Made by a program: the position numbers and the translations under genes
DNA from: Heptranchias perlo
Taxonomy: Eukaryota
Direction: 5' to 3'
Length of the DNA: 64,000 bases
NCBI RefSeq assembly: GCF_035084215.1
Contig: NC_090332.1
Coordinates: 35,030,001 to 35,094,000 of the forward strand
The notes under the pieces: generated by a model
What the model was told of the DNA's origin: nothing
Seen by the model: only the letters and a program-made list of their open reading frames with translations
Database searches by the model: none
Part shown: one piece after another, positions 1 through 64,000 of the stretch
Position numbering within the stretch: the first letter of the stretch is position 1
Layout: the number at the start of each line of letters is the position of its first letter

Positions 1-3000
1 CGAGGACACCCAGATCTTTCTGAACACCAACATTTAATAGTTTCTCACCATTTAAAAAATATTCTGCTTTTCTATTCTTCCCATCAAAATGAATAACCTC
101 ACATTTCCCTACATTATACACCATCTTCTTGCCCACTCACTTAACATGTCTATATCCCTTTGCAGACTTGGTCCCTTCACCTAAGTCATTAATATAGATT
201 ATAAATAGCTGAGGCCCCAGGACTGATCCTTGTGGCACCTCACTAGTTACAGCCTGCTAACCTGAAAATGACCCATTTATCCTTACTCTGTTTTCTGTCC
301 GTTAACCAATCCTCTATCCATGCTGATATATTACCCTCAACCCTATGAGCCCTTATTTTGCGTAGCAACCTTTTATGTGGCACCTTATTGATTGCCTTTT
401 GGAAATCCAAATATACTACATCCACTGGTTCCCCTTTATCTACCCTGCTAGTTACATCCTCAAAGAACTCTAATAAATTCGTTAAACACGATTTCCCTTT
501 CATAAAACCATGTTGACTCTGCCTAATCATATTATAATTTTCTAAGTGCCCTGTTAGTACTTCCTTAATAATGGATTCCAATATTTTCCCGATGACTGAT
601 GTCAGGCTAACTGGCCTTTAGTTCCCTGTTTTCTCTTTCCCTCCTTTCTTGAATAGCATTGTTATATTTGTTACCTTCCAATCTGCTGGGACCATTCTAG
701 AATCTAGGGAATTTTGGACGATCACAACAAATGCATCCCCTATCTCTGCAGCCACCTCTTTTAGTACCCTAGGATGTAGGCCATCAGGTCCAGGGGATTT
801 GTCCCATTACTTTGTCTAGTACGTTTTCTCTACTGATATTGTTTTGAGTTCCTCGTTCTCATTTGCCCCTTGGTTGCCCACTATTTCTAGTATGCTTTTT
901 GTGTCTTCTACTGTGAAGACAGATACAAAATATTTGTTTCACGTCTCTGCCATTTCCTTATTCCGCATTATAATTTCTCCTGTCTCAGCCTCTAAGGGAC
1001 CAACCTTTGCTACTCTCTTCCTTTCTACATACTCTTACAATCTGTTTTTATACATCTTGCAAGTTTACTCTCATGTTCTATTTTCTCCCTTTTTATCAAA
1101 TTTTTGGTCACCCTTTACTTGTTTCTAAAACTCTCCCAATCCTCAGGCTTACTACTATTCTTTGCAACATTATAAGCCTTTTCTTTTAATCTAATACTAT
1201 CCTTAACTTCTTTAGTTAGCCATGGGTGGATCGCTTTTCTCTGAGTTTTTATTTCTCAATGGAATGTATATTCATTGAGAATTCTGAAATATTTCTTTAA
1301 ATGTCTGCCACTGCTTATAGAATCATAGAAGTTTACAACATGGAAACAGGCCCTTCGGCCCAACATGTCCATGTCGCCCAGTTTATACCACTAAGCTAGT
1401 CCCAATTGCCTGCACTTGGCCCATATCCTTCTATACCCATCTTACCCATGTAACTGTCCAAATGCTTTTTCAAAGACAAAATTGTACCCGCCTCCACTAC
1501 TGCCTCTGGCAGCTCGTTCCAGACACTCACCACCCTTTGAGTGAAAAAATTGCCCCTCTGGACCCTTTTGTATCTCTCCCCTCTCACCTTAAATCTATGC
1601 CCCCTCGTTATAGACTCCCCTACCTTTGGGAAAAGATTTTGACTATCTACCTTATCTATGCCCCTCATTATTTTATAGACTTCTATAAGATCACCCCTAA
1701 ACCTCCTACTGTCCAGGGAAAAAAGTCTCAGTCTATCCAACCTCTCCCTATAAGTCAAACCATCAAGTCCCGGTAGTATCCTAGTAAATCTTTTCTGCGC
1801 TCTTTCTAGTTTAATAATATCCTTTCTATAATAGGGTGACCAGAACTGTACACAGTATTCCAAGTGTGGCCTTACTAATGTCTTGTACAACTTCAACAAG
1901 ACATCCCAACTCCTGTATTCAATGTTCTGACCAATATCTACTTATATATGCTTATCTACTGTCATACCATTTAATCTAATTTTCCAACCTACTGTAGGCA
2001 ACTCGCCCCCCCCCCCCCACCCCTTACCTATGTATTTGGCTTTATTTAAGTTTAAAACTCTAGTTTTGGATTTAAGTATGTCACTTTCAAACTCAATGTG
2101 AAATTCTATCATATTATGATCACTCTTCCTCAGAGGATCCTTTACTATGAGATTACTAATTAACCCTGTCTCATTACACAAGACCAGATTTAAAATAGCC
2201 TGTTCCCTGGTTAGTTCCACGATGTATTGTTCTAGGAAACTGTCTCGAATGCATTCCATGAACTCGTCCTCCAGGCTACCTTTGCCAATTTAATTTGCCC
2301 GGTCTGTATGAAGATTAAAGTCCTCCACGATTATTGCATTACCTTTGTTACAAGCTCCTATTATTTCTTGATTAATACTCTGTCCAATGGTATAGCTACT
2401 GTTAGGGGCCTGTAAATTACTCCCACCAGTGTTTTCTGCCCCTTGTTATTTCTTATCTCTACTTTCTGAACTTCCGAGCCAAGATCCTTTCTCACTACTG
2501 TTCTTATGTCATCCTTTGTTATCAGGGCTACCTCCCTCCCTTTCTATTCTGCCTGTCTTTCCAAAATGTCATGTACCCTGGAATATTTAGTTTCCAACCT
2601 TGTTCACCTTGCAACCACGTCTCTATAATGGCTGTTAGATCAAATCCATTTATCTCTATTTGTGCCACTAATTCGTCTATCTTGTTGCGAATACTTTGTG
2701 CATTCAGATAAAGAGCCTTTAATTTTATTTTTTTACCATTATTCCCTGCTTTGACCTTAATCGTTGATGCACTATTTCCGTGAAGCTCTCTGTCCCTTCC
2801 TGTCACACTCTGCTTATCCTTACTCATATTGCTACACAGCTCTATTGCTTTGTCTTTTCACTTTAGATTTCTAAATTTCCCCTCACCTGACCCTTCCCCC
2901 TTTTTAGTTAAAGCCCTATCTACTGCCCTAGTTATTCGATTCGCCAGGACATTGGTTCCAGCCCAGTTTAAGTGGAGCCCGTCCCAACAGAACAGCTCCC

Positions 3001-4110
3001 TCTTTCCCCAATACTGGTGCCAGTGCCCCATGAATCGAAACCGTTTCCTCTCACACCACTCTTTGAGCCACACATTTAACTCTCTGATCTTGACCCTATG
3101 CCAATTTGTGTGTAGCTCAGGTAGTAATCCAGAGATTATTACCTTTGAGGTTCTGCTTATTAATTTAGATTCTAGCTCCTCAAACTGTCTCAGCAGAACC
3201 TCATTCTTAGTTCTGCCAATGTCGTTGGTTCATACGTGGACCATGACAACTGGATCCTTCCCCTCGTGCTCCAAGTTCTTTGCTAGCCGCGAGGAGATAT
3301 CCTCAACCCTGGAATCGGGTAGGCACCACAGCCTTCGGGACTCTCGGTCGCGACTGCAGAGAACAGTATCTATCCCCCGATTATACTATCTCCTACCACT
3401 ACCACATTCCATTTTGCTCCCCCCACTTGAATGGCCTCCTGTACCACGACGCCGTAGTCAGTTTGCCCATCCTCCCTGTAGTCCTCGTTCTCATTCATAC
3501 AGGTAGCAAGTACCTCGTACCTGTTGGACAAGGTCAAGGGCTGAGGCTCCTCCATCACTACATCCTGGGTCCCCTTACCTGCCTGACTCGCAGTCACATC
3601 CTTCTCTCCCTGACCTCTGACTAACTCTAAAGTACTATTTAACCTAAGGGATGTGACTGCCTCCTGGAACAAAACGTCCAGGTAACTCTCCCCCTCCCTG
3701 ATTCATCATAATGTCTGCAGCACGGACTCTTGCTCAACAACTCTGAGCTGAAGTTCCTCGAGCTGCAGACACTTACTGCAGATGTGGTTGCTTGGGGTCT
3801 TACTGGTCTCCACCAACTCCCACATGCTGCATTTACGACACACCACCTGCCCTGCCATCTCTAACTAACCTTGTTTAATTTAATTAGTTTTTAAAAAGTT
3901 TTTATTCAATCGGTTATTTATAGTTTCATAAATCTATTTAATAATCTAGTTTAAGTTATTAATTTAATAAAGTAATTTCAGTTTTATTCTCCCAGCTCTT
4001 AATTTAGTTTAACCCACTGCCCTAAGTTTTATTCTCCGAGCTCTTAATTTTACCCACAGCCCTAACTGAGAGAGGAAACAAATGCTGTAATACTTACCAG
4101 CCAATCAAGC
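1..4110 (-). mobile_element. Long CR1 LINE retaining its 5' end (5'UTR, ORF1, endonuclease and RT part of ORF2), degenerate; continues beyond the window start
   Basis: ORF1 from ATG 3858: MAGQVVCRKCSMW...HICSKCLQLEELQLRV (zinc finger plus zipper), then SGNH esterase motifs VVGDSI and DGLHLN. ORF2 fragments include LYLNAQSIRNK, SDHNMIEF (APE) and QHGFMKGKSCLTNLLEFFE/VYLDFQKA (RT). Multiple stops and frameshifts. Confidence 0.93.
1318..1934 (-). mobile_element. 5'-truncated CR1 3' end nested inside the long CR1
   Basis: ORF 1396-1899 (LYKTLVRPHLEYCVQFWSP...TRGHRFKV) with a tail repeat at about 1318-1330. Host sequence tgcttat is repeated on both sides. Confidence 0.9.
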
Positions 4111-7400: not shown

Positions 7401-9155
7401 TATCTATCTCAGTGTGTCTGATGTACCCATAGGTGTGGGAGAGTGTCCAATGTGTCTGCAAGATCAACCCATGCTGCTTGGTTGGTTGAAATGTCATATT
7501 TATTAAAAAGCAAGCAATCAAAAAATACAAACACAGCACACTTCACTAGGTCACAAAAAAATCCCATTCACAAAAAAAAATCACATCTAAGAATGTGAGA
7601 AAGAAATGGGCAGTTTTTCATTTCCTACTTATTTTCTTCTCTTTTAATTCTCAGTCCTCATTATTTTAGGTTTTCCTGGCATGGAAATGTTGATTCACCA
7701 ACTTGCTCCATCCCATTCTGCCCCCTACTGTCATTTTTTAGGAGCATCATCGGTCTTCCAACCCTGTCACAAGCCTCATTTCTTTTACCAGCTGTGGTGT
7801 TGTATTTTGCTCCCTCCTCAGAGTTGCTATTGTTGACTTAGACCTTTTGCAATTACATAATAATCATGGTCTATAACAAACTACTCAATGTCCCTTAATG
7901 TTTGTTTTCTACCCTCAATGAAGTGTTCAGCACTTTTGATGAATTCAACACCAGAGATGAGAAAACAGTTGAGCCACAGAGCAAAAAACAATAGAAGCAT
8001 CACGATTGAAGGAAGGAAGAAAGAAAGAAGGGCAAAAGTTTGGAGGAGAAAAGGAATTTATAGGAGTGAGAAAGACAAAATTCAGAGAACAAAGTGGGAT
8101 ATTTAAAAAGAATCAAGAAAGAAAATGTGGTGGTAATGAAAACAGAAAAATAGAAATACAGTACTAAGACTTCAGGGCCAAGAATCAGCAAAGTAGAAAC
8201 AAAAGCATAGAATCATTGAAAGTTACGGCACAGAAGGAGGCCATTCGGCCCATTGTGTCCGTGCCGGTCGCAAAAGATCTATCCAGCTTAATCCCACTTT
8301 CCAGCACTTGGTCCATAGCCCTGTTGGTTACGGCACTTCAAGTGCACATCCCAGTGCTTTTTAAATGAGTTGAGGGTTTTTGCCTCTACCACCCTTTCAG
8401 GCAGTGAGTTTCAGACCCCCACCACCCTCTGGGTGAAAAAATTTCTCCTCAGCTCCCCTCTAATCCTTCTACCAATTACCTTAAATCTATGTCCCCTGGT
8501 CACTGACCCCTCTGCTAAGGGAAATAGGTCCTCCCTATCCATTCTATCCACTCCCGTCATAATTTTATATACCTCAATTAAATCTCCCCTCAGGTTTCTT
8601 TGTTCCAAAGAAAACAACCCCAGCCTATCCAGTCTTTTCTCATAGCTAAAATTCTCCAGCTCTGGCAACATCCTCGTAAATGACCTCTGTGCCCTCTCTA
8701 ATGCAATCACATCTTTCCTGTAATGTGGTGACCAGAACTGTAGGCAGTACTCAAGCTGTGGCCTAACCAATGTTTTATACAGTTCTTGCATAACCTCCCT
8801 GCTCTTATATTCTGTGCCTCGGCTAATAAAGGAAAGTATCCCGTATGCCTTCTTAACCACCTTATCTACCTGTCCTGCGACCTTCAGGGATCTGTGGACA
8901 TGCACTCCAAGGCCCCTCACTTTCTCTCCACCTTTCAGTATCCTCCCATTTATTGTGTATTCCCTTGCCTTGTTTGCCCTCCCCAAATACATTGGGCCTG
9001 ATATTAGGAGGGCTGCGGGTTCTCAGTGGGGGGTCGACTGGGCGCGTGGGTAACGCGCCCGTGAAATCAGTGTGCTCCGCACGGAATCGCAGGCTAATTG
9101 GAGCCACTTACCTGTGCTTCCGGGTTTCGCGCTGGAAAGCTGCGCAGCGGGCGGA

Positions 9156-9203
9156 CTGCGCATGCGCAGCAAAGTCTGTCAGCTGGAGGAGCCCTATTTA
9201 AAA
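9156..9203 (+). promoter_or_regulatory. Candidate promoter of the Harbinger Myb gene
   Basis: Perfect palindrome CTGCGCATGCGCAG (NRF1-type site) at 9156-9169. TATA-like TATTTAAAA at 9195-9203, about 50 bp before the ATG. The TATTTAAA(A)GGGC motif is kept in copies 2 and 3. Confidence 0.5.
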
Positions 9204-9251
9204 GGGCAGTCCACCGATGCTCCTCCTGCAGCAAACAACCAATTCTGAACT

Positions 9252-11102
9252 ATGGAGCAGGCCAGAGGGAAGGCTGCCCCAAGATTTTCAAACTCCTCAC
9301 TCCGGGTGCTGCTGGATGGGATGAGGAGGAGGAGGGAAATCCTTTTCCCATCCGATGGGACGAAGTGCCCTTCCTCCACCACGAAGAAGGCCTGGCTGGA
9401 GGTGGCCGAGGAGGTCACCAGCAGCGGCAATGTGCCACGAACCTGGGTCCAGTGCAGGAAGAGTTTTAATGACCTAACCAGGTCAGCCAAAGTGAGTATA
9501 CTTACGCATTCTCCCACACTCCGTCTTCCACATCACTTCCACCACCACACAACCCTTCTGCACTGCCACCACAACGCTCTCGCATCACTCCTCACATCCA
9601 CTCAACTATCATCCTCACCTTACCTGCACGTACTCACCGCCCCTGTCCCCATTCGAACACTACCACGCAACCCAATCCTCACACAATATCATGGCTATGT
9701 TGCACATGCACCCTCCCATGCATCTCCCTCACGCTCAACCCCACCCACACCAATGCATGCAGCGGGTCACCATGCAACCATCACTCAATCACGCCTCTGT
9801 GTTTTGCCTTGATAGGAGAAGAGATGCCAGAACGCCCGGGAGAGGGCAAGGACCGGAGGGGGCCCGCCATACCAGGTAGCACTAACGGACGCAGAGCAGC
9901 AGGCATTGGAGATCACCTGCACACTGGAGTGCCTGTCCGTGGCGGGTGCCGAGGCTGGGATTGCACAAGCAGCCGGTGACAGAAAGCTAACACTCAGCAC
10001 TCATGATGGCAAATGATCTTAGCATCACTTGGCATCTGCAGCACCTCAACATCTGTCCAAATGCCTAATATTGCTTTCTGTTATCTTGCAAGCCCATCTG
10101 CGAGTGCCGTGACCGTGGATGGCGATTCCTCAGAGGACCTGCCGGCCTCACATCTCAGCCATGCATCCCCCAGTGCAGATACACACACCTCGGTGGGTCC
10201 CCGTCCTCACTTAGTTGGGCTTGCACATGGTGAGTCACCACGCACATGTGAGCTCGAGCAGACCCTGGTGGCAGTGGCAGCCGTGGAGAGTCCGCGTTGG
10301 TGGGAGCACTCTTCTCCAGGCACTGCTCAGCTGGACCCAGATGCTGAACCCTGGGGGCCAGCCGTGAAAAGGAGAGTCGTCGAGGGGCAGCAGCACATTG
10401 CCAAGGTGCTGGAACAGTTGCCACGTGCACTCTCCACAACCGCGCAGAGGATGGAGGAGTCTAACTCCTGCATGAGGGGAATGGTGGCACAGGTACAGGA
10501 GGGTATCTTCGAGATAGTGTCGCAGGGACGTGAAGGCATCTCTGAGATAGTGTCGCGGGTAGGTGCGGGAATGTCTGCGATGGAGGAAAGGCTAGCCTCC
10601 ATCGAGCGTCAAGCATGGCTCAACAATGAGTCCATTCAGGCCCTGAAAACGGCTGTTCGGATTCAGGGTGAGCAGAATTCTGCCGCCTTAAACAGACTGA
10701 CAGTACAAGTGGCCTTCCAAGGCCTCACACAAGCCCTCCAAACTGCTGTCCAGCAGGGTGGAAGGAGTGATGTGGGCCTGGGCCACGAGAGGAATGATGG
10801 TGAAAGGGGACATGGAAGTGGGGACGCCACTCAAAGCGCTCCCACGTCTCACCCGTTGCCCCCCTCTCAACCAGTACCCGCAATGCTGCCCCCTCTCCAG
10901 GTGGCCGAGTCTGCCCCTGCACAGGTGCAGGTGGAGCAGTCTTTGGAGGGGCCCTCACGGGCACCGAAACCCAGAGGGCGTCAGCTCAAAGCATCTAATC
11001 AGGGCATGGCATGGACAAGAGCAACCTGCCACTACCTCTGCTGAAGCCACAGGGGTAGCACCACGTAGGGGCTCCCGGAAACGCAAGGCTAAGGTTTTGT
11101 GA
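9252..11102 (+). pseudogene. Harbinger Myb/SANT-like DNA-binding protein gene, 3 exons (9252-9491, 9816-9975, about 10092-11102)
   Basis: Exon 1: MEQARGKAAPRFS...AWLEVAEEV...RTWVQCRKSFNDL (Myb/SANT-like trihelix). Exon 2: EKRCQNARERARTGGGPP. Exon 3 is long and low-complexity or coiled, ending RRGSRKRKAKVL. The exon-3 acceptor is CAA here versus CAG in copies 2 and 3, and there is a frameshift near 11000. Confidence 0.85.
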
Positions 11103-11296
11103 GCACAAAGGGGATGCACAAGGGTGTTTGATGATTTGTCATGTTTTATATTTATATTTCTTTTCTGCCACATGCACAATAAATATTATTATTATCACCA
11201 CTACTGCCACGTCTTGCCCATTCTTGACTGGCTTGTGGAATAGGTCCCTTTCATGGGGTTCACCATGAACATGCACACTTGATGCCACCCATTGGG

Positions 11297-11773
11297 TCAC
11301 TGCAGAGTGGGTGTAGGTGTATTTGAAGGGCTCTTTTGTGCAGATGACTGAGAGACATCGGCGATGTCCCTGGTGGCACCCTGGAAGGATGCGAAGGAGA
11401 AGTTGTTGAGGGCAGTGGTGACTTTGACAGCAACAGGTAAGAAGATGGTGCTCGGGCCAGCCGGGAGCAGCTCGGCATGAAGGAGGCTGCAGATGTCCAC
11501 GACTACATGTCGAGTGACTCTGAGCCTCCAAGTGCACTGCTGCTCAGAGAGGTCCAGGAAGCTGAGCCTCGGTCTGTAGACCCTGTGGCGAGGGTAGTGC
11601 CCCCTGCGACGCATCTCTCTCTGCGGTTTCCCTCCCTCCTGATGTGCAGGTGGATGTGTCACAGCACCGTGTTGTGGAGCTCCACGTGTCAGAGGTGGAC
11701 GGCATGGCCGGCGAGGCTGGTGATGCTGTTCGCCCTCCGAGGAGGTCATGACTGCAGCTACGGCGGCCCCCAT
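11297..11773 (-). pseudogene. N-terminal fragment of a HARBI1-like transposase (open frame, no DDE core)
   Basis: RPRLSFLDLSEQQC..RLR...LPVAVKVTTALNNF...FQGATRDIADVSQSSA, then an abrupt switch to 3'-flank-derived SPSNTPTPTLQ*. Confidence 0.85.
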
Positions 11774-12533
11774 CCGGAAGATGTACATCTGAGGGGGTCC
11801 GCAAGGTAGTTAAATGTGTCTGGACACCGGGGTAAGTGTGCAAGTTGGTGAATTTTATTGTTAGGAGGAGGGCGGTGGAGGTCAAACTCTGTCCAGAGTG
11901 GCCTCCTGCAATGAGTGAGGGTCTCCCCTCCCCACCTGTCAAATGGACCTTTGCAGCTGCCACAGGCTGATGGCTGCAACATGTCCATTTGAAATGGGAG
12001 TGTTTCCCCCAGTACGGGAAACAGTCTCAGTTCATTTCAAAATCCCACCCCTCCTAAAATATCAGGTCAATCAGATCTGTAAACGACCTGAAGTACCTGT
12101 TTAAGTGGCACCCCGCCGGCTTTAGTTGCCGGCGGGAGTCCCACTTGCGGGGGCTGCGCGCGCATGTCAGCGTGTCACTGGGGAACCCGGAAGTGGGCGG
12201 GTTGGAGCCGGGCTCCAGACCCGCCCCGGGAATCCCTGATTTTCGCAGCCCCCCGCCACAAACGCACCCGCCCGGGGGTGCGAAAATCGAGCCCATTACC
12301 TCACACTTCTCTGGATTGAATTCCATTTGCCACTTTTCTGCCCACCTGATCAGTCCATTGATATCTTCCTGCAGTCCACAGCTTTCCTCCTCTCTATCAA
12401 CCACATGGCTAATTTTTGTATCATCTGCAAATTTCTTGATCAAGCCCCTCACATTCAAGTCCAAATCATTAATAAATAATACTGAGCCTTGCGGGACCCC
12501 ACTGGAAACAGCTTTCCAGTCGCAAAAACTCCT

Positions 12534-21960: not shown

Positions 21961-23086
21961 GTGCTACAAAACAGACATTTGTTTTTGAAGGAATTGTCTT
22001 ATCGAGTTACTCAGTTTTGGGGAATGCAATTTTTTGCACTCATTGTTTAGTATCAGGCTGTCCGAGGTTAGGCATTGATATGGTTAGATAGTAGGATAGT
22101 AGTGATGTGGTCATGTCTTGGGCAAGAGAAGACCATTGGTCCATCTAACCTACCCTTCCAAACCTCCCATCGGGTTCCTTACCTGATTCTGGACTATAGC
22201 CCTGTATCGCCTTTTCTGACAGGATATCATTGAATCCTTTTTTAAACCCTGTTACACTGTTCTCTTCCAGGACCTAGAATTCTGTGCCAAAATTCTACCA
22301 TCCTATTACTAAAAAAAATTCCTAAATTTCCTGTTTTCCTTTGACACCCTGGCCATGATTTTTACCTGGAGCCGGGAGAGAGCGGGGGGATAGATTTTCA
22401 CTGGGGAAACCCGGAAGTGAAGTGAACACATTGGAATCTGTGATCGCAACTCAATTGAAGGCAATTATTTTTGCTTCTTGGTTTCACATCTCTAAGCTTC
22501 GCAGTGGGTGTTATGTGCACCCGAATGATGCAATCTGAAATCTATTATTTAAAGGGCCAGTGCAAAAATGGATTTTGGAGGAGAAAGAAGGAAATAAAGC
22601 TATGGATTCAAAGACAGCAAGGGCAGCACCCAGGTTCACAGATGCTTCACTTGAAGTAGTGCTGGGTCCAGTGAGAACCAGGAGGGAGCTAATTTACCCA
22701 AGCGAAAGGAGGAAGAAACCTGGTTCTGCCAACAAGTAGGCATGGCTGGAGGTGGCAGAAGAATTGAGCAGTAGGAGCATGGTGCCCAGGTCTTGGCTGT
22801 AGTGCAGAAGGCGCCGAAATGATTTAATGAGGTCAGGAAAAGTGAGTACAGTTGCTAATTCACCCACATCCTGTGGTGTACAACACCCCTCCTCTCACTC
22901 TGTCTTGGCAAGCCTATTCCATCACATCACTCCTCACATTCAGTTAAGTTTCAGCACCAACCATCCTTCACTTTCTATGCATTTCTTCACCTCCCCATTT
23001 GTGCACCTACCACTACCACTCATCCCAATCCTTATGCACTGTGATGCATCTGTCTGATAGTCACGCTCTGATGCATGTGTCTGACA

Positions 23087-23300
23087 TGTAATAAATTGGA
23101 TAGCCAGGTAGTGAAGGATAGAATACTAGAGCCTGGTCTTCAGTTGCTTCTAAGCCTTTATTCACACAGATCCACATTACCTACTGTGCACCCCCTAAAT
23201 AAGCTCTTATACAAATGGATACAAGAGAGTCCCTAATTGATATGCACCGCCTGAATACAATTAACACTAATTGATATAAAACATACAAATATAATTAACA
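23087..23300 (-). mobile_element. Solo LTR inserted in intron 1 of the copy 3 Myb gene
   Basis: TG...CA termini, 5-bp TSD tgaca/tgata (1 mismatch), AATAAA on the minus strand. Homologous to 55397-55605. Confidence 0.75.
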
Positions 23301-24879
23301 TGATAGCCTCACCCAAAACACTGCATCCATTGGGTGAATACGTCACCTTCAGTCACTCACAGGTCTGTTTTTTTGCCTCTTGCAGGAGAAGAGAGCACAA
23401 AACGCAAGGGAGAGGATGAGGACTGGAGGTAGCCCTCCACAAATAGTCCAGCTGACAGATGAAGAGGAGGAGGCCATGGAGATAAGTGGGACATCTGCAT
23501 CCCTATCCATCAGATATGGAGAGATTGGGAACCCGCATATGCCTGGTGACAGAACTTAATCATCTTTCACACACATGATGACTTTATTTCATCAATGACT
23601 GAATTATGAGAAACCTGAGTATGGTGATTGGCAAGATTGTTACTTTGCCATAACTAATTCATATCGCTTTCTGTTGTCTTCCAGGGCCTTCACGCGTAAA
23701 AGAAGAATGTGCGGAGATGGATGACATCGATTCCTCAGAGGACCTCATTCCTTCTGAGGGTGCACCGTCACAGGACATACAGCCATGCACCAGCGCAGAT
23801 ACTCGCACTTCAGTGGGTCCTGTTAGTGCGTTAGTTGGGTTGTCACCTGGTGATTCACAACTCACAAGTGAGCATAAGCAGACACCGGTGGCAGGGTAAG
23901 CTGTGGAGAGTCCACGTAGGAGGGCACACTCCTCTCCAAGCTCAGCTCAGCTGGACATAGATGCTGAACCCTGGGGGCCATCGTTGAAAATGAGAAAGAT
24001 TGAGGTACAGCTGCACCTTTGGAAAATGTGCCACGTACACGCTTCACAATAGCGGAGAGGATGGAGGAGTCCAACTCTAACATTAGTGGATTGATGTCGC
24101 AGGTAATTGCGAGAATGTCTGCCATGGAGAGAATGGCCGCCTCCATGGAGCTTCAAGCACGGCTCTCAAATTAGTCTGTGCAGACCATGACCATGATCAT
24201 GGCTGTGCAGGAGATGTCTGCTGCCTTGAACAGGATGACAGATATCTTATCCGCGGCTTTGCAAAGCGAAACAGATCTGCTCCAAGCTGCCGTCCAGCAG
24301 AGTGGTTGAAGTAATGTGGCGCTGGCCTGGGAGAGGGATGATGGCGAAAGGGGACATGGAAATGGGAACTCCACTCAAAGCGCTCCCATGTCTCACCGGT
24401 TGCACCCGCCCACCCCCCCCCCCCCCCCAACCAGTACCCAAAATGCTGCCTCCTCTCCCGATGGCTGAGTCTGCCCCTGAACAGGTCATGGCAGGGATCT
24501 GAGCAGCCTGCCTCAACCTCTGCTGAAGGCATGGGGGATGCATCACGTAGAAGCAGTAGGAGGCATAAGTTCAAGCAATTGTAGTTCATCAAGGGTAAGC
24601 TCAAGGGTGTTTGAAGAAATGTTATGTTGTTAAGTTCCCTTTTTTTTTTGTATTGGCACATTAAATGTATTGCTTAGCCATTGTTGCATCCCGAGTGCTA
24701 TGTCGCCCTTTCATTTGTTTCATGATGAATGCCAATACATGATGGTAGCCATTGGGCGGATGTGCAATGGGTGTGTGCATGGTTGAAGGACTGTTTTGTG
24801 CAGTGGGGTTGGGGTGGGCGGGGGGTGGTTGGTGGTGGTTGTGCCAGCCGGCTTGAGTATCTCAATGTCTCTCTTATTG

Positions 24880-26075
24880 CCACTGTTATTAAGAGAACCT
24901 GTGTAAATGAGGGCTTCCCGGGCAGCAATGTGCGCGGCTGGTCTGGTGATGGGTGCCCCAACTTCATATTCCTCCTCGTACTCCTCATCCTCTTTCTCTT
25001 TTTCCATGTTGGCCCAACACAGGATGATTGATGAGTGCCTTCTTCCTCCTCCACCTCTAAACCTCTCTGCTGCACTCTGTTGTGCAGGACCACAGCACAC
25101 CACGATTATACTGGAGACCCTCGCTGGCGAGTACTGAAGGGCACCTCCAGACCTATCCAGGCACCTGAAGCGTACCTTCAACATGCTTGCTCAATGATAC
25201 ACCTGGGGGTCATGTGACTTTGGTTGTATTACTCTTGTGTCTTGTTGGTGGGGTTCCTCAAAGGTGTCATGAATCATTGCAGGGTCTATCCCTTGTCTTC
25301 AACGAGCCAGCCCTTAAGTCTGTCTCCTGTTTGGAAGAGATCTGGAATGTTGGACTAGCGCAGAATGAACACATCATGACAGCTGCCAGGGAAGTTGGCG
25401 CACACCTGCATAAATCGCTTCTTGAGGTTGTACACCAGCTGTGCATTGATGGAGTGAAAGCCATTTCGGTTTATGAAGACTCCTGGCTGATGTGGTGGTC
25501 CTCGGATTGCCACGTGTGTGCAATCGATTGCGCCCTATACCCAAGGGAAGCCAGCTAGAGAGGCGAAACCCACTGTCCGCTCATTCTGGCTATTGTCGCC
25601 ATGGGGGACGTTCACGTATGCGGACGCCCTGGCAAACAATCCATCCATCACCTGCCTTATGTGTACACGACTGACACACACTGGAGATGTCACCAGTGGC
25701 GCACTGGAAGGATCCAGAGGCAAAGAAATTGAGGACAGTGGCTACTTTTACTGCAACGGGCAATATGTGGCCTCCAGATCCAGCAGGGAGCAACTCATCC
25801 TCAAGGAGGCTGCAAATATATGCGACTGCCTGCCGATTCAATCTGAGCCTGCGTGGGCACTGCTCCTCAGAGAGGTCCAGGAAGCTCAGCCTCTGCCTAT
25901 GTGCCCTCTCACATGGGTTGTGCCAGTTGCAACCTCTCTGCTGTGCTCCAGATCGATGTTGCGCGCCTCTCTCTTGTGCACCTGCAGATCCCAACACAGC
26001 ACGACGTGGCTATCATGGATGGTCATTTTCTTCCTCCTCAGATGTCCTCTGAAATACATCCATTGTGCCCCCCAT
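24880..26075 (-). pseudogene. HARBI1-like DDE transposase pseudogene
   Basis: Minus-strand reading [17 protein letters not shown]...[13 protein letters not shown]...FPGSCHD...GWLVEDKG*...MTPLRNP...YNQSH...IIEQA...LKVRFRCLDRSGGALQYSP. All three D/D/E motifs are present, with stops and frameshifts. Confidence 0.92.
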
Positions 26076-28570: not shown

Positions 28571-29367
28571 GGGCTCAATTTTGAATTGGTGGCGGGTTGG
28601 CAGTTGGGGGGTGAAGGTGCGTGTGGCAAACCCGCATAAACAAAACTTACTGGTTCTGACGCGATCGCATGATGATTGCTGATGATTAACGTGCTCTCCG
28701 GGTTTCACGCCAGGCAGCCAGCCTGATTGACAGGCTGGCTGCCGTCAGGAGCTGCAACGCGAGGTGGGGGGAGAGAAAGAGAGAGAACGAGACATCATCC
28801 GGTGCTGGAACGGACGATCGGGTGGGGGGGGTGGTGGGGAGAGATGGGAAGATTGGTGGGGGGTGGGGGGGAGAGAGGGGAAGGTTGGGGGGGGAGAGGG
28901 GAAGATCAGGAGGACATCAGGGGGTTAAGAGGGGAAGATTGGGAGGACATCGGGGGGGGTGAAGAGGGGGACATCGGAGAAGGAGACATTGGAGTGAGGT
29001 GGAAAGGTAGATTGATTTTGTGTTTTAACTTCCTTCAGTGGTTTTTGATGTAATTTATTTTGTTTCTTTCTCCCTGATCCGGCCCTCCCAGGCGTGAATC
29101 AGAAGCATTAAAAATTGTTACAACCAAGTCATCTGTCACAAGTAAAGTGTCTTAAGTACCTCAATGAGGTACATTTGGCTCTTTAACTATCATCGAGCCG
29201 GCGGGACTTCCAGTTTCGAGATGCCCGCGCGCACACAGGTGCGTCCTTGGGAAACCCGGACGTCGGCAGGTTGGAGCCGGCTTCCAAAGCTGAACGGGAT
29301 TTCCGCGATTTTCGGAGCCCCTCCCCCGCCTCCAATGCACCCGCAATTTCTCTGTAAAATTGAGCCC
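28571..29367. mobile_element. Non-coding Harbinger MITE related to copies 1 and 2
   Basis: Perfect 12-bp TIR GGGCTCAATTTT and TSD ATA. The right ~200 bp aligns with 12110-12294. G-rich internal repeats. Confidence 0.9.
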
Positions 29368-35944: not shown

Positions 35945-37300
35945 ACCTGTATTAGTATTGAGGTCTAGCACAGGCCAGAAGCAATGTAAAAGTCCCCGTA
36001 CTTCCCCAACAATGTGCTTTAAACCTTACCTTGGAAAGGCAGGCCATTTCACCAGTGTGAATCATAACCATAGAATCAAAGAAATTTACGGCACAGAAGG
36101 AGGCCATTTGGCCCATCGTTTCTGTGCCGGCCGAAAAAGAGCTATCCAGCCTAATCCCACTTTCCAGCTCTTGGTCCATGTAGTCTTGTAGGTTGCAGTA
36201 CTCCCAAGTGCAGATCCAAGTACTTTTTTAAAGTGATGAGGGTTTCTGCCTCTACCACTCTTCCAGGCAGTGAGTTCCAGATCCCCACCATCCTCTGGGT
36301 GAAAAAATTTCTCCTCAACTCCCTGCTAATTCTTCTACAAATTACTTTAAATCTATGCCCCCTGGTTTTTGACCTCTTTGCTAAGGGAAATAGGTCCTTC
36401 CTATCCACTCTATCTAGGCCCCTCATAATTTTATACACCTCAATTAAATCTCCCCTCAGCTGCCTCTGTTCCAAAGAAAACAACCCCAGCCTATCCAATC
36501 TTTCCTCATAGCTAAAATTCTCCTGTCTTGGCAACATCCTCGGAAATCTCCTCTGTGGCCTCTCTAGTGCATTCACATCTTTCCTGTAATGTGGTGACTG
36601 GAACTGTAAGCAGTACTATAGCTGTGGCCTAACTAGTGTTTTATACAGTTCTAGCATAACTTCCCTTCTCTTATATTCTATGCCTCGACTAATAAAGGAA
36701 AGTATCCTGTATGCCTTCTTAACCACCTTATCTAGCTGTCCTGCTACCTTCAGGGATCTGTAGACATGCACTCCAAGGTCCCTCTGTTAGAATCATAGAA
36801 TCATATCATAGAAAGGTTACAGCATGGAAGAGGCCATTCAGCCCATTGAGTCCATGCTAGCTCTATGCAAGAGCAATCCAGCTGGTCCTACTCCCCCGCC
36901 CTATCCCCATAGGCTCACAATTTTTTTCCTTTCAAGTACTTATCCAGTTCCTTTTTGAAGGCCATGATTGTTCCTCTACACTTCTCAGTATCCTCCCATT
37001 TATTGTGTACTGTGTATTCCCTTGCCTTGTTTGCCGTCCCCAAATGCATTACCTCACATTTCTCCGGATTGAATTCCATTTGCACTTTTCTGCCCACCTG
37101 ACCAGTCCATTGATATCTTCCTGCAGTTTTATCTGAACGTTTCCATTTCCCGCATCAGTCATCATCGTTGCCTCACAGTGTGATTACCAGTTAACGATGA
37201 ATCATGAGTAGTTTGTGCTGTTGTGTGGATTTGAACAGAGTCCAGTCTCAGTGATGAAAGGGCAAGGTGCTGACTCATGCCATCATCCAGTTCACCCCTT
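35945..37300 (-). mobile_element. LF-SINE-like element split by the CR1 (pieces about 35945-36065 and 37130-37300)
   Basis: Minus strand has a tRNA-like head gccctttcatcactgagactggactctgttcaaatcca and a 3' part ccaaggtaaggtttaaagcacattgttggggaagtac resembling the LF-SINE consensus as recalled. Not verified by alignment. Confidence 0.45.
36068..37128 (-). mobile_element. CR1 3' fragment with a further CR1 tail nested at about 36788-36970
   Basis: ORF 36151-36576 (FSYEERLDRLGLFSLEQR...TRGHRFKV). A second tail agaatcatagaatc at 36788; the RT remnant resumes to about 37128. Confidence 0.88.
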
Positions 37301-48704: not shown

Positions 48705-51700
48705 GGGGCTCGATTTTCAGATGTCCGAGTGGGTGCATTCGTGGCGGGGGGGGCTCCGAAAATTGGGGATTCCCGGGGCGGGTCCGGAGCCCGGTTCCAA
48801 CCCGTCCACTTCCGGGTTCCCCAATGACACAATTAGATGCGCGCGCAGCCCCCGCATGCGGGACTCCTACTGGCAATTAATGCCGGCGGGATCCCACTTA
48901 AATCAATTAATTTGATACTTCAGGTCGTTAGGAAACCTGATTTGGAGGATATTTTTGGAGGGGTGGGATTTTCAGGTCAACTGAGCGTGTTTCCCGTACT
49001 GGGGGAAACACTCCCAGTTGAAATGGATGTGTTGCAGCCACCAGCCTGTGGGAGCTGCAAAGGTCCATTTGACAGGTGCGTCAGGGGGAGACCCTCACTC
49101 ATTGCAGGAGGCCACTCTGTCACTTTGGACAAAGTTTGGCCTGCACCACCATCCTCCTGACACAAAAAATCACAAACTTGCAACCTCAACCCCGGTGTGC
49201 AGACACATTTACCTACCTTGCGGACCCCCTCAAATGTACATCTTTTGGATGGGGGCCGCCATAGCTGCAGTCATGACCTCCTCGGAGGACGAACAGCATC
49301 ACCAGTCTCGCCGGCCACGCCATCCACCTCTGATGCTTGGAGCTCCACAACACAGTGCTGTGACACATCCACCTGCACAGCAGGAGGGAGGGCAACCGCA
49401 GAGAGAGATGCGTTGCAGAAGGCACTACCTTCACCACAGAGTCTACAGACCGAGGCTCAGCTTCCTGGACCTCTGAGGAGCAGTGCATACGGAGGCTCAG
49501 AGTCACTCGACATGTAGTCGTGGACATCCGCAGCCTTCTTGATGCTGAGCTGCTCAAGGCTGGCCCGAGCACCGTCTTCTTACCTGTCACTATCAAAGTC
49601 ATCACTGCCCTCAACAACTTCTCCGGATTCTTTCAGGGTGCCACCGGGGACATCGCCGGCGTCTCTCTGTCGTCTGCACAAAAGAGCCCTGCAAATGCAC
49701 CTACACCCATTCTGCAGTGACACAATGGATGGCGTCAGATGTGGGTCTTCATGCTGATCCTCAGGAAAGGGCATTATTGCACAAACCATTGCAAAGACGT
49801 GGCAGTAGTGGCGATAACAAATTTTTATGGTTTTTTGCAAAACAAACAAAAGTAAATCAAAACCATGACATTTTGTCTTACACCATTGTGCATCCCCTTT
49901 GTGCTCACAAAACCTTTGCCTTACGTTTACGGGAACCCCTACGTGGTGCTACCCCTGTGGCTTCAGCAGAGGTAGTGGCAGATTGCTCTTGTCCATGCCC
50001 TGACCAATGAGATGCTTTGCGCGGACGCCCTCTGGGTTTTGGTGCCCGTGAGGGCCCCTCCAAAGACTGCTCCACCTGCACCTGTGCAGGGGCAGACTCG
50101 GCCACCTGGAGAGGGGGCAGTATTGCGGGTACTGGTTGAGAGGGGGGCAACGGGCGAGACGTGGGAGCGCTTTGAGTGGTGTCCCCACTTCCATGTCCTC
50201 TTTCGCCATCATCCCTCTCCTGGCCCAGGCCCACATCATTCCTTCCACCCTGCTGGACGGCAGTTTGGAGGACTTGTGTGAAGCCTTTGAAGGCCAATTG
50301 TAAAGTATCTGTCAACCTGTTTAAGGTGGCAGAATGTTGCTCACCCTGAATCTGAACGGCCGTTGTCAGGGCCTGAATGGATTCATTGTTGAGCTGTGCT
50401 TGAAGCTCGATGGAGGCTAGCCTTTCCTCCATCGCAGACATGCCCGGACCTACCCGCAACACTAGCTCAGAGATGCCTTCACGTCCCTGTGACAGTATCT
50501 CGGAGATACCCTCCTGTATCTGTGCCACCATTCCACTCATGCAGGAGTTGGACTCCTCCATCCTCTGCGCGATTGTGGAGAGTGCGCGTGGCAACTGTTT
50601 CAGTACCTCAGCAAAGTGCTGCTGCCCCTTGATGACTCTCCTTTTCATGGCTGGCCCCCGGGGTTCAGCATCTGGGTCCAGCTGAGCAGAGCCTGGAGAA
50701 GAGTGCTCCCACTGATGCGGACTCTCCACGGCTGCCCCTGCCCCTGCCACCAGGGTCTGCTCATGCTCACATGTGCGTAGTGACTCACCAACTAAGTGAG
50801 GATGGGGACCCACCGAGGTGTGTGTATCTGCGCTGGTGGATGGCTGGCTCAGATGTGACGATGCACCCTCAGAGGCCGGCAGGTCCTCTGAGGAATCGCT
50901 CTCTGCAGTCACGGCGGTCACAGATGGCCCTGCAAGAGAACAGAAAGCGATATTAAGCATGTGGACAGATGTTGAGGTGCTGCAGATGCCAAGTGATGCT
51001 AAGATCATTCGCTATCATGAGTGCTGAGTATTAGATTTCTGTCACCAGCGCTTGTGTACTCCCAGTCTCGGCATCTGCCACGGACAGGCACTCCAGCGTC
51101 TGGTGACAGAAATCTAACACTTATTCTAGTGACTGCTGCTCCGCGTCTGTTAAGACCACCTGGTGTGGCGGGCCCCCTCCGGTTCTTGCCTTCTCTTGGG
51201 CATTCTGGCATCTCTTCTCCTATCAAGGCAATGCACAGAGGCGTGATTGAGTGATGGTTGCATGGTGACCCGCTGCATGCATTGGTGTGGGTGAAGGTAA
51301 GCGTGAGGGAGATGCATGGGAGGGTGCGTGTGAGACATAGCCATGAGATTGTATGAGGATTGGATTGAGTGGTAGTGTTCGAATGGGAACTGGGGCAGTG
51401 AGTACGTGCAGGCAAGGTGAGGATGATGGTTGAGTGGTTGTGAGGAGTGATGCGAGAGCGTTGTGATGGCAGTGCAGAAGGAGTTGTGTGGTGGTGGAGG
51501 TGATGTGGAAGACAGAGTGTGGGAGAATGCGTAAGTATATTCACTTTGGCTGACCTGGTTAGGTCATTAAAGTGCTTCCTGCACTGGACCCAGGTTCTGC
51601 ACACATTGCCGCTGCTGCTGACCTCCTCGGCCACCTCCAGCCAGGCCTTCTTGGTGGCGGAGGGAGGCCACCTCCTCCCATCCGATGGAAAAAAAAATTC

Positions 51701-52028
51701 CCTCCTCCTCCTTACTCCATCGAGCAGCACCTAGAGTGAGGAGTCAGAGAACATTGGAGCAGCCTTGCCTCTGGCCTGCTCCATACTCCAAAATTGGTCC
51801 TTTGCTGCAGTTGGAGCATTGGAGCACTGCCCTTTTAAATAGGGCTCCTCCTGCTGACAGCCTGTGATGCGGGTGCGCAGTGCGCCTGCTGCACAGGTCT
51901 GGAACGGGAAACCCTGAAGCACACGTAAGTAACTTCAATTAGGCTGCGATCGCGTGCGGAGCACCCCGAATTCACTGGGCGCATCGACCCCCCCGCTGCC
52001 AACCCGCCTCCCTCCTAATATCGGGCCC
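48705..52028 (-). mobile_element. PIF/Harbinger copy 2, same deletion-derivative family as copy 1, inverted
   Basis: Termini (G)GGGCTCGATTTT / AATATCGGGCCC. TSD TAT at 48702-04 and 52029-31. Collinear with copy 1 over its whole length. Confidence 0.93.
49905..51784 (-). pseudogene. Harbinger Myb/SANT-like gene of copy 2
   Basis: Exon 1 at 51784-51545 (240 bp, one TAG at 51731-33). Exon 2 is disrupted by an inverted duplication. Exon 3 at 50929-49905 is fully open with a CAG acceptor and ends RRGSRKRKAKVL*. Confidence 0.85.
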
Positions 52029-52652: not shown

Positions 52653-53118
52653 AGAGTCATAGAGTCATAGAGTCATAGAGTTATACAGCACGGATAGAGG
52701 CCCTTCGGCCCATCGTGTCCGCGCCGGCCATCAGCCCTGTCTACTCTAATCCCATATTCCAGCATTTGGTCCGTAGCCTTGTATGCTATGGCATTTCAAG
52801 TGCTCATCCAAATGCTTCTTGAATGTTGTGAGGGTTCCTGCCTCCACAACCCTTTCAGGCAGTGAGTTCCAGACTCCAACCACCCTCTGGGTGAAAAAGT
52901 TCTTTCTCAAATCCCCTCTAAACCTCCCGCCTTTTACCTTGAATCTATGTCCCCTTGTTATAGAACCCTCAACGAAGGGAAAAAGCTCCTTAGTATCCAT
53001 CTTATCTGTGCCCCTCATAATTTTGTACACCTCAATCATGTCCCCCCTCAGCCTCCTCTGCTCCAAGGAAAACAAACCCAATCTTCCCAGTCTCTCTTCA
53101 TAGCTGAAGCGCTCCAGC
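52653..53118 (-). mobile_element. Young CR1 3' fragment
   Basis: (atagagtc)n tail and an open C-terminal frame GLERFSYEERLGRLGLFSLEQRRLRGD...GYGPNAGIWD. Confidence 0.93.
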
Positions 53119-53820
53119 CCTTCTCCTTGGCTAAACACTTCTGCAACCAAGAGAACAGGGTGAACTTCCTGTTCCCAGGCAACAACTCTAGCCTGGCCAC
53201 AAGGAGTTGTGTAACAGCAGCCTGGTATGGAGACTCTAGCCAATTTTTTCTTCCTCTCTGGAGATGCTTGGCCTTCTGACACACTACTGCGAAGAATGGG
53301 TCTGAATCTGCGTTCTTCTGCTCAATGGTGCTACACTATTGGTTATTACAACACCAATTTCAGTATCTAGTAAAATATAAATTTAGCAACCTTTATTTAT
53401 CCATTTTCAGTACAATACAAGCCAACAGGGAAAAGAAAATATGTTTAATACATTACTGCATATATTGCCATTGGCAAACGTGAATGAAAAAATGGCATTT
53501 CACAATGTAACATGGATTACCAAAAATAAATCCCTGACTAACATCACATAATTCATAAGCCTGAAGAGTGGTTAATTTTCCGTTATTTATGAAGTCCTGT
53601 CTTGCTTGCACCACTTATGGACTAATTTTATGAGTATCTTTAAGATTGAGGCAATATATTCATTCTGTTGGGACTTAATTTTGTGGAGGATTGCTGAATC
53701 AAGAACTGCTGTGCGGTAATACAGTCAGGTGGCAGCTGGCAAGTTCACTGTCATGGTTGTATACATTGTGGAACAGTATAAAATAGTGGGTAGAATTTCC
53801 ATTGTCCTTTTATAATAATA

Positions 53821-55396: not shown

Positions 55397-55605
55397 TGTT
55401 TTAAATGGATAGCCATGTGGTAAAGGATAGAATACCAGAGCCTGGTCTTTAGTTGTTTCCAAGCCTTTATTATAGAGATTCCTCTTACACACACACACCA
55501 TACCCTAGATAAGCTCTCCTATAAAAGGGATACAAGAGAGTCCCCTATTGATACCCACCACCTGAATACAATCAACACTCATTGATATAAATCATAAAAT
55601 TAACA
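55397..55605 (-). mobile_element. Solo LTR
   Basis: TGTT...AACA termini, perfect 5-bp TSD ATGTG (55392-96, 55606-10), minus-strand AATAAA. Homologous to 23087-23300. Confidence 0.85.
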
Positions 55606-58755: not shown

Positions 58756-58989
58756 GAACCTAAGCATTTCTTTGATGTGCCACATCTGCCACCTCCACCA
58801 GCAGGAGAAGTGTGCCACGTAGCTCCATTTGGAAAATGAGCGATTGAGTGTAAATGTTAGCAAAAACTTTCTTCTCCACAAAATAGTTGGGGCTGAGATG
58901 ATTAAATCCTTTTAAAAAAAGAGCTGGATAAATATCTAGTTGGGAATGGGATTGATGGTTACAGAGATAGGTATAGACAGAGATGATCA

Positions 58990-59572
58990 AAGAATCATAG
59001 AATGATACAGCACAGAAAGAAGCCACTCGGCTTATCGTGCCTGTGCCTGCTCTTTGAAAGAGCTATCCAACTAGTCCCACTCCCCTGCTCTTTCCCCATT
59101 GCTCTGCAAATTTTTCCCCTTCAAGTATTTATCCAATTCCCTTTTGAAAGTTATTATTGAATCTGCTTCCACCACCCATCCCAGATCATAACAACTCGCT
59201 GCATAATTTTTTTCCCTCATGTCACCTCTGATTCTTTTGCCAATTACCTTAAATCTGTGTCCTCTGGTTACCGACCCTTCTGCTATTGAAAACAGTTTCT
59301 CCTTAATTACGCTTATCAAAACCCTTCATGACTTTGAACACCTCTATCAAATCTCCCCTTAGCCCTTGCTGCTCTAAGGAGAACAGCCCCAGTTTCTCTA
59401 TTCTCTCCACGTAACTGAATTCTTTTATCCCTGGTACCATTCTAGTAAATCTCCTCTGCACCCTCTCTAAGGCCTTGGCATCCTTCCTAAAGCGTGGTGC
59501 CCAGAATTAAACACAATTCTCAAGCTGGGGCCTAACCAGTGTTTTATAAAGATTTGGCATAACTTCCTTGCT
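58990..59572 (-). mobile_element. CR1 3' fragment
   Basis: Tail agaatcatagaatg and ORF 59071-59319 (SVTRGHRFKVIGKR). Confidence 0.9.
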
Positions 59573-62607: not shown

Positions 62608-63270
62608 GGGTGAGTGCGATATTTGGGGGTATCAGTGTCATTTATTTTTGAGGGTATCAGTGAGTGTTATTTTTTGGGTATAGTAGTGAGTGTTATTTTA
62701 TGGGTACATCAATAATTGTTATTTTATAGGTATATCAGTGAGCGTTTCATTTTTCGGGTATCGGTGAGTGTTATTTTGGGGATATTAGTGTGTGTTATAT
62801 TTTAGGGTTTCAGTGAGTCCTTTCTTTAGAGTATTACCGTATATTATTTTATGAGCATATTAGTGAGTGTTATTTTTTAGGTTATCGGTATATATTATTT
62901 TTGAGAATATCAGTGAGTGTTGTTTTATGGGACTATCAGTGAGTGTTATTTTATGGGTATATCAGTGAGTATTATTTTATGGGTATATCAGTAAGTTGTT
63001 TTATGGGACTATCAGTGAATGTTATTTTTCGAGGTGTCAGTGTGTGTTATTTTATGGATATATCAGTGAGGGTTCTTTTTGGGCTCTTATTTTATCAGTG
63101 TATGTTTTTGGAGGGGTACCAGTGTATGTTATTTTTGGAGTTATCACTGAATGTTATTTTGAGGTTTCAGTGTATTGTTTTATGGGGTACAAATATGTTC
63201 TTTTTGGGGTTATCAGTGCATTTTATTTATGCATTTATGCATTTATCAGTGAGTGTGATTTTATTGGGAA
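62608..63270 (+). repeat. Degenerate minisatellite, unit about 28-30 bp (consensus approximately gggtatatcagtgagtgttattttat)
   Basis: About 20 tandem head-to-tail units, each containing a tatcagtg(agtgt)tatttt-like core. Strongly T/G-skewed. Confidence 0.9.
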
Positions 63271-63273
63271 TTA

Positions 63274-64000
63274 TAGAATCAGAGAATCATAGAAAATTTA
63301 TGGCACAGAAGGAGGCCATTTGGCCCATCGTGTCCACGCCAGCTGAAAACGAGCCACCCAGCCTAATCCCACTTTCCAGCACTTGGTCCGTAGCCTTGTA
63401 GGTCACGGCATTTCAGGTGCATATCCAAGTATATTTTAAATGAGTTGAGGGTTTCTGCCTCTACCACCCTTTCAGGCAGTGACTTCCAGACCCCCACCAC
63501 CCTCTCGGTGAAATTTTTTTTTCTCAGCTCCCATCTAATCCTTCTACCAATCACTTTAAATCTATGCCCCCTGGTTATTGACCTCTCTGCTAAGAGAAAT
63601 AGGTCCTTCCTATCCACTCTATCTAGGCCTCTCATAATTTTGTACATCTCAATTAAATCACCCCTCAGCCTCCTCTGTTCCAAAGAGAAACAACCCAGCC
63701 CATCCAATTTTTCTTCATAGCTAAAATTCTCCAGTCCTGGCAACATCCTCGTAAATCTTCTCTGTACCCTCTCCAGTGCAATTACATCTTTCCTGTAATG
63801 TGGTGACCAGAACTGTACACAGTACTCAAGCTGTGGCCTAACCAATGTTTTATACAGTTCCAGCATAACCTTCCTGCCCTTATATTCTATGCTTAGGCTA
63901 ATAAAGGAAAGTATTCCATATGCCTTCTTAACCACCTTATCTACATGTCCTGCTATCTTCAGGGATCTGTGGACATGCACTCCAAGGTCCTTCACGTCCT
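63274..64000 (-). mobile_element. CR1 3' portion, runs off the window end
   Basis: ORF 63363-63995 (DLGVHVHRSLK...YKTLVRPQLEYCVQFWSP) and tail tagaatcagagaatcatag. Confidence 0.95.

Follow-up and report, generated by a model that had tools for sequence, protein, structure and literature searches.

Non-autonomous DNA transposons are usually viewed as terminal parasites of their helpers. In zebrafish, Harbinger3N_DR is a non-coding derivative of Harbinger3_DR, and the interaction of the Harbinger3_DR Myb protein with the transposase maps to the transposase N-terminus. Harbinger transposition is reported to require both proteins (PMC2836001). The closest described system is Harbinger-1M_cIno of Caenorhabditis inopinata, a PIF/Harbinger element that carries only the MADF gene, is moved in trans and is presented as novel within the superfamily (Sato et al. 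2026, PMC13668399). The elephant shark, the sole species examined in its group, is reported to lack Harbingers (PMC9179366), and a Pleurodeles paper describes ordinary Myb-carrying Harbingers. Here we analysed a stretch of 64,000 nucleotides from the shark Heptranchias perlo (NC_090332.1, positions 35,030,001 to 35,094,000, forward strand; hereafter the window), in which an initial annotation had noticed two copies of a Harbinger element that keeps a Myb gene and the transposase N-terminus but lacks the DDE core. Our results point to a non-autonomous Harbinger family that probably arose by one loss of the core, was mobilised in trans, had its ends and Myb gene swapped, and regained the core at least once.

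Copies 1 and 2 of the window are 85.6% identical across 3.3 kb. They inserted independently, as the initial annotation had proposed: the target-site duplication (TSD) is ATT for copy 1, with an empty site as proof, and CAT, plus an extra A at the left side, for copy 2. Both carry the same junction, TGTGCAG, at 11337-11343 and 49674-49680. The missing segment had been estimated at about 860 bp, with three catalytic motifs, by comparison with a third copy. The matching interval of copy 3 (24794-25658) is indeed 864 bp long and contains AIDCTH (25531), VEDKG (25303) and IIEQ (25198), but copy 3, an older relative only 64-76% identical, is ruled out as the parent. A search with the deleted core retrieved the true parent family, P, whose consensus is 91-95% identical to that of the copy-1 subfamily. 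Measured against P, the deletion is 853 bp long with a perfect 7-bp TGTGCAG at both breakpoints, so the microhomology suspected earlier is exact and would fit microhomology-mediated repair. Loss by splicing was rejected, since GT-AG ends are missing from the deleted segment on both strands. The truncated transposase (the stub) runs from ...SQSSA into the 3' flank, as described, and its frame then continues for 13 codons to a stop. The stub tree unites all 98 deleted rows in a single clade (100/99), sister to P-like elements. Therefore the deletion predates the amplification, in agreement with the earlier proposal, and the deletion cassette has one origin.

The junction is not confined to the two window copies. 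An exact 19-mer across it occurs 7,367 times genome-wide (reversed control, 0), and 40 of 40 scored matches span the junction at 96-98% identity apart from the query, which rejects a local duplication. When 70 junction loci were sampled by position, 10 proved to retain Myb exons 2-3 (form A, 3.3 kb). The other 60, about 86%, are form B (2.05 kb; copies examined, L081-L110, L141-L180 and L201-L230), in which a second shared deletion removes most of Myb; the form B junction occurs 7,399 times. Capture-recapture, with inputs of 18/28 and 37/60, yields about 10,000-11,000 B copies and about 1,600 A copies (range 800-2,800). The count of intact breakpoints, 3,841, is not a clean ratio, just 9 of 24 full-length loci matching the pattern exactly. 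Below, A1 (copy 1), A2 (copy 2) and B denote deleted subfamilies, and D, P, F+ and Y full-length ones. The B consensus omits six copies with insertions, and the P consensus omits L268 and L279.

A second, independent deletion of the catalytic core, from the older D lineage, defines family Z (copies L481-L510). Here the same left TGTGCAG is joined to a TGTGCAG lying about 310 bp beyond, so that the stub is largely lost; 2,823 matches were counted at no more than one mismatch. Of 30 Z copies, about 11 retain Myb exons 2-3 for the most part or in part, and about 17 have the Myb deletion of B. B is therefore likely chimeric, its left arm being D/Z-type with Myb deleted and its right arm A-type. 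Since about 86% of the junction copies lack most of Myb, and Z is missing most of the stub, both parts are dispensable in cis. A similar deletion within Myb, spanning ~853 to 1787 in copy-1 coordinates with GGAGAGGG microhomology, was seen in L157, L040 and L310; the GGAGAGGG-type deletion occurs in deleted and full-length copies alike and is either recurrent or transferred.

Median non-CpG divergence from the own consensus is 4.5% for D, 3.0% for A2 and for P, 2.6% for A1 and 0.8% for Y. The least diverged deleted copies stand at 1.5% (A1) and 1.8% (A2), values that do not indicate current mobility, and the family is apparently an extinct, fossil burst. These divergences suggest that it amplified alongside P and that, in this sample, it was not moved by Y, which is 73-78% identical to it. 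The Y copies (L281-L286, L382-L420) lie 0.3-1% from their consensus, have open transposase frames and, in 12 of 18 cases, an uninterrupted Myb gene; Y is possibly still active. P and D differ by a synonymous divergence (dS) of 0.03 in the core and by 15-17% in the introns.

Different regions of the element record different histories. With 42 rows, the deleted copies are monophyletic immediately to the right of the junction (support 99), but approximately unbiased tests reject this grouping for the left arm (8e-85), exon 3 (0.004) and the right end (0.007). The left-arm tree of 96 rows forms a ladder in the order D, A2, full-length intermediates, P, A1, F+ and Y. When sequences were painted by type, A1 was P-type to 2308, A2-type over 2324-3414, then mostly P-type again. 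L188, L271 and L274 were late-A1-type to ~2110, P-type over 2214-3484 and, from ~3740, largely A1-type again, and in P both arms were A2-type, with mostly D-type sequence over 2157-3414. The elements are thus mosaics that switch type on both sides of the core: A1 is a P background with the A2 junction cassette, and F+ copies combine late-A1 arms with a P core. Hence, the choice of region alters consensus-based family trees of such elements. In the left-arm tree, about 0.74 changes per site accumulate along the trunk from D to Y, whereas the length of terminal branches falls only from about 0.06 to 0.01. Therefore the active lineage may have changed about 10 times faster than resting copies, or may have imported sequence from unsampled donors.

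The ladder is carried by 36 non-CpG alleles that separate P from F+ and segregate in nested order within A1. Scaled to 36 sites, 8-25 ladder alleles are carried by 46 of 62 deleted copies; this scoring omits 11 copies with an unreadable junction region. Among the first 42 full-length copies, 28 carry fewer than 8, 11 carry at least 27 and 3 fall between. A further 20 full-length copies, fished with an F+-like (A1-type) Myb end as a prediction test, all carry late alleles (lowest scaled score 26, two partly covered). Thus 3 of 62 full-length copies stand at intermediate steps, and in trees all three lie later, on the side of Y. The same picture came from searches that ignored the junction. All 26 informative best matches to a mid-A1 arm and all 18 to the copy-2 arm are deleted; a P arm retrieved 21 full-length and 8 deleted copies, and an F+ arm 8 and 14, respectively. 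Most simply, this part of the lineage would have been passed in deleted copies, one of which would have regained the P core. Changes of the A1 phase are clustered: 13/247 sites in the left subterminal region, 16/400 in exons 1-2, 1/415 in the introns and 8/1,030 in exon 3 (subterminal region versus introns, p=2e-5). Co-evolution with Myb sites, escape from silencing and biased repair are candidate causes.

The consensus Myb gene of the deleted subfamilies is not broken. It is open, with three exons and canonical splice sites, in A1 (476 amino acids (aa)) and A2 (465 aa). Copy 1 has two flaws, an intron-2 acceptor that reads AA and one frameshift near the end of exon 3, and copy 2 is disrupted by three frameshifts and one stop. 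Uninterrupted genes are found in 6 of 59 A1 copies and 0 of 28 A2 copies. Private changes, 1660 nonsynonymous (N) and 613 synonymous (S), or 2.7 to one, indicate neutral decay after insertion. Subfamily-level changes, which include no shared stops, are 43N/30S when pooled (ratio 0.53, p=0.011 against private changes); split, they are 17N/16S in A2 (p=0.01) and 26N/14S in A1 (p=0.28). These counts suggest modest purifying selection, with a ratio of nonsynonymous to synonymous rates (dN/dS) of about 0.5. No depletion of amino-acid changes is seen in the orphan exon 1 of B (13/4 shared changes). Between subfamilies, synonymous divergence is higher in Myb exons 1-2 than in neighbouring introns (for A1 and A2, for example, dS 0.27 and 0.38 vs 0.03 and 0.02). 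Among the sequencing runs listed as matching, none is on record as RNA. Some runs are presumed to be RNA; in two of these, from one sample, a few contigs skip intron 2 exactly and are not assignable to deleted copies, many contigs retain introns, and no skipping of intron 1 occurs among the contig joints shown. An annotated shark cyclin-dependent kinase 2-like isoform (P0008) contains about 70 residues 88% identical to the exon 3 product, possibly by exonisation or annotation error.

Together, these data can be arranged into a mechanism. A single microhomology-bounded loss of the catalytic core founded the deleted family, and rarer full-length relatives likely mobilised its copies in trans. 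Since both proteins are required, deleted copies needed a helper transposase and could have contributed Myb; while active, they may have supplied part of the Myb pool. The order would be D (full), A2 (deleted), P (full), A1 (deleted), F+ (full) and Y (young, open frames); the step from A1 to F+ is well supported, that from A2 to P less so. Breaks left by excision are repaired by copying, and the template can be a non-allelic relative (synthesis-dependent strand annealing, PMC3878927); double-strand gap repair of this kind would be the route of exchange. Template switches in the Myb 3' flank and in the stub would then swap the cassette for the core, or the reverse. On this reading, deleted copies likely took up the core again and gave rise to the lineage of Y, the youngest intact family sampled. 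A more ambitious version holds that the lineage alternates between autonomous and non-autonomous states, that Myb and the ends evolve fast and under selection in copies without transposase, and that such copies twice recaptured the older core, founding the youngest intact family. We advance it tentatively, as its chances seem somewhat less than even.

Several observations weigh against core recapture by deleted copies. Most copies are best matches to chosen queries, and this sampling leaves room for a rare full-length master with few copies. Because the choice of the 36 sites was itself based on P and F+, information comes only from copies of the intermediate class. No intermediates were sampled along the long D-A2 branch, and changes specific to A2 would likewise make P paint as D-type. 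Selection on Myb in the A1 phase is not significant alone (16N/8S, ratio 0.73, p=0.49), and the pooled test is modest and could reflect alleles imported from full-length elements. In addition, a 2-bp exon-3 deletion recurs in 7 A1 and 6 A2 copies, and the commonest form lacks Myb exons 2-3, so that Myb is dispensable in cis.

Some of these points would be expected if a rare full-length lineage had evolved the arms and repeatedly gained the cassette by gene conversion, each conversion seeding a burst of deleted copies with Myb as a passenger. On at least one occasion the cassette entered a P background, a Myb gene in cis is dispensable, the A1-phase dN/dS is not significantly below 1, and full-length copies of the P era are rare, with 0 P-type and 3 later-type against 12 deleted among 70 positional loci. 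However, such a history requires many conversions and a master without copies at any intermediate step, whereas full-length copies are easily found before (28) and after (at least 30) the A1 phase. Moreover, both F+ arms carry late-A1 alleles around a P-type core. We therefore consider a concealed master unlikely. A stable division of labour as proposed for C. inopinata, in which elements with only Myb and elements with only transposase complement one another and two-gene elements do not re-form, would agree with the two independent Myb-keeping deletion families and with the single DDE-positive copies without Myb exons (L040, L036). Yet most helpers observed here carry both genes (the DDE side is kept at 45 of 70 loci sampled by position for Myb exon 3), no amplified transposase-only family was seen and the arms return to two-gene elements, all of which makes this arrangement very unlikely.

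A further explanation concerns the stub. In Drosophila, KP is an abundant internal deletion with an open N-terminal transposase frame and an intact DNA-binding domain. The initial annotation had suggested a KP-like, dominant-negative role; the stub would then titrate Myb or poison the complex and be kept for that. Copy 1 and all three consensus sequences have an open stub frame, with no shared stop or frameshift, and a Myb-transposase interaction is established for Harbinger3_DR. Given about 20-25 trunk substitutions, an open frame would be unsurprising by itself. The stub has no Pfam match. It differs from the parent by 17.5N/2.5S and among subfamilies by 18N/2S, a dN/dS of about 1 or above, against 0.20 for the same region between full-length P and Y. 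It is cut at ~84 within the predicted recognition helix (model helix 80-100), most of which is gone, and its fixed changes F>N, A>S and G>A fall at near-invariant positions, with conservation in 35, 31 and 36 of 36 homologues. Family Z, in addition, amplified without most of it. KP keeps its DNA-binding domain; the shark stub is cut inside the helix-turn-helix and unconstrained. A repressor role is thus highly improbable, and of the proposed retention of Myb plus an interaction module only the open consensus Myb stands. The most plausible view is that the stub is a leftover, retained by virtue of its location between the breakpoint and the right end.

The family belongs to PIF/Harbinger by its ends and by its parent. 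Terminal inverted repeats (TIRs) are 12 bp long and imperfect. Exact 3-bp TSDs flank 26 of 36 A, 38 of 59 B and 9 of 11 P copies; the 0 of 16 for Y arises because its consensus was used without the right end. The TSDs are A/T-rich, not strictly TWA, and the flanks of 73 exact-TSD rows give a palindromic consensus, GACAC-NNN-GTGTC, an extended target preference. Full-length copy L060 matches PF13359 (DDE_Tnp_4; E=4e-38) and the deleted element does not. The best named relatives of the transposase are shark HARBI1-like proteins, and those of both proteins come from sharks, chiefly Heptranchias perlo. A first look at the 3.25-Gb genome gave 34,316 PF13359 candidates, and open frames of ~500 codons are common among the 150 scored. 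The single-sequence fold of the parent transposase was unusable (predicted local distance difference test (pLDDT) 35), and an alignment-based model (pLDDT 91) was used instead. With this model, Foldseek gave no match at E<=0.001 and weak transposase or integrase rows only; no sequence match to the parent transposase was found in the PDB.

The features of the window are collected in the table. Copy 2, whose TIRs were placed at 48706 and 52017, belongs to the older deleted subfamily. A repeat search for Myb-binding motifs in the subterminal regions gave nothing convincing. Copy 1 lies in an interspersed repeat, presumably a LINE (long interspersed element), with copies at 8196-8993, 12295-12375, 36056-37127, 52659-53121, 58987-59572 and 63265-63995. 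The right end of copy 3 is apparently shifted to ~29200-29367, and its intron 1 contains a 200-bp repeat (23094-23291) with a second copy, 81% identical, at 55403-55602. A degenerate tandem array of a 25-26-bp unit occupies 62610-63230.

Table. Features of the Harbinger copies in the window (positions within the 64,000 nucleotides)
Feature	Position	Strand	Remark
Copy 1	8994-12294	+	A1 subfamily
Copy 1 TSD	ATT, left 8991..8993, right 12295-12297	+	paralogous empty site holds a single ATT
Copy 1 left TIR	8994..9005	+	consensus ends
Left subterminal region of copy 1	9006..9251	+	putative promoter and Myb-binding sites; fast-evolving along the lineage
Myb exon 1, Myb/SANT DNA-binding domain	9252..9491	+	PF13873, E=9e-11, above cut-off
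Myb exon 2	9816..9975	+	consensus GT-AG boundaries, open frame
Myb exon 3, helical middle region and basic C-terminal tail	10092..11102	+	
Deletion cassette	11295..11532	.	allele block common to A1, A2 and B; absent from full-length elements
Stub, 158 aa (145 parental, 13 new)	11297..11773	-	open in copy 1
Deletion junction TGTGCAG	11337..11343	+	parent loses 853 bp: recognition helix, three catalytic motifs and stop codon
Copy 1 right TIR	12283..12294	-	
Copy 3, decayed two-gene Harbinger	22600..25930	.	older family, 64-76% identity, catalytic motifs present
Empty-site paralogue of the interspersed repeat that received copy 1	36971..37127	+	single-ATT stretch 37016-37090
Copy 2	48706..52028	-	older A2 subfamily; junction 49674-49680

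Exchange between autonomous and non-autonomous elements has precedents. Soybean autonomous and non-autonomous retrotransposons swap long terminal repeats (LTRs), and Tc1 copies exchange sequence by gap repair. In these cases, as in the shark, non-autonomous partners track autonomous cis sequences by recombination. Unlike them, the shark family is a cut-and-paste element in which the flow apparently also runs from non-autonomous to autonomous. In maize Mutator, dispersed two-gene elements also recombine, ends are uncoupled from genes and new gene combinations arise cyclically (Hunter et al. 2023, PMC10401008). The Mutator cycle concerns matching and mismatching TIRs, whereas the shark cycle concerns presence or absence of the core and is read as a stepwise ladder. 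With zebrafish Harbinger3_DR, the shark elements share two convergent genes, Myb-like and DDE_Tnp_4, a 3-bp TSD and an extended target preference (PMC2836001, PMC13668399, PMC3158080).

With an intact consensus Myb gene, no DDE domain and amplification as a unit, the shark family is a MADF-only derivative, a class already known from Harbinger-1M_cIno; the new part is likely the return from deleted to complete elements. We found no report of the shark family, or of core recapture by a non-autonomous DNA transposon, in a literature search outside Repbase, Dfam and most subscription journals. Harbinger-1M_cIno resembles the shark family in that an internal deletion keeps Myb/MADF without DDE and was amplified in trans, in being outnumbered by shorter derivatives and in the presence of two independent MADF-keeping families per genome (PMC13668399). 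Its published account describes about 20-25 MADF loci, active now and expressed, with one DDE-only source, and the text consulted contains neither a selection test nor recombination back to two-gene elements (PMC13668399). The shark family, in contrast, is a fossil burst of about 1,600 plus 10,000 copies in a vertebrate, with two-gene helpers, and its arms pass back into full-length elements. It thus extends the Myb-only configuration from one nematode to a vertebrate, at a copy number roughly a hundredfold higher, and thousands of dated fossil copies appear to document flow in the opposite direction, with deleted copies turning back into complete elements. Such flow would offer a two-gene transposon a route to persistence, numerous deleted copies exploring ends and Myb while a slow-changing core is recycled. 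If so, non-autonomous elements would be ancestors of autonomous ones, and not dead ends.

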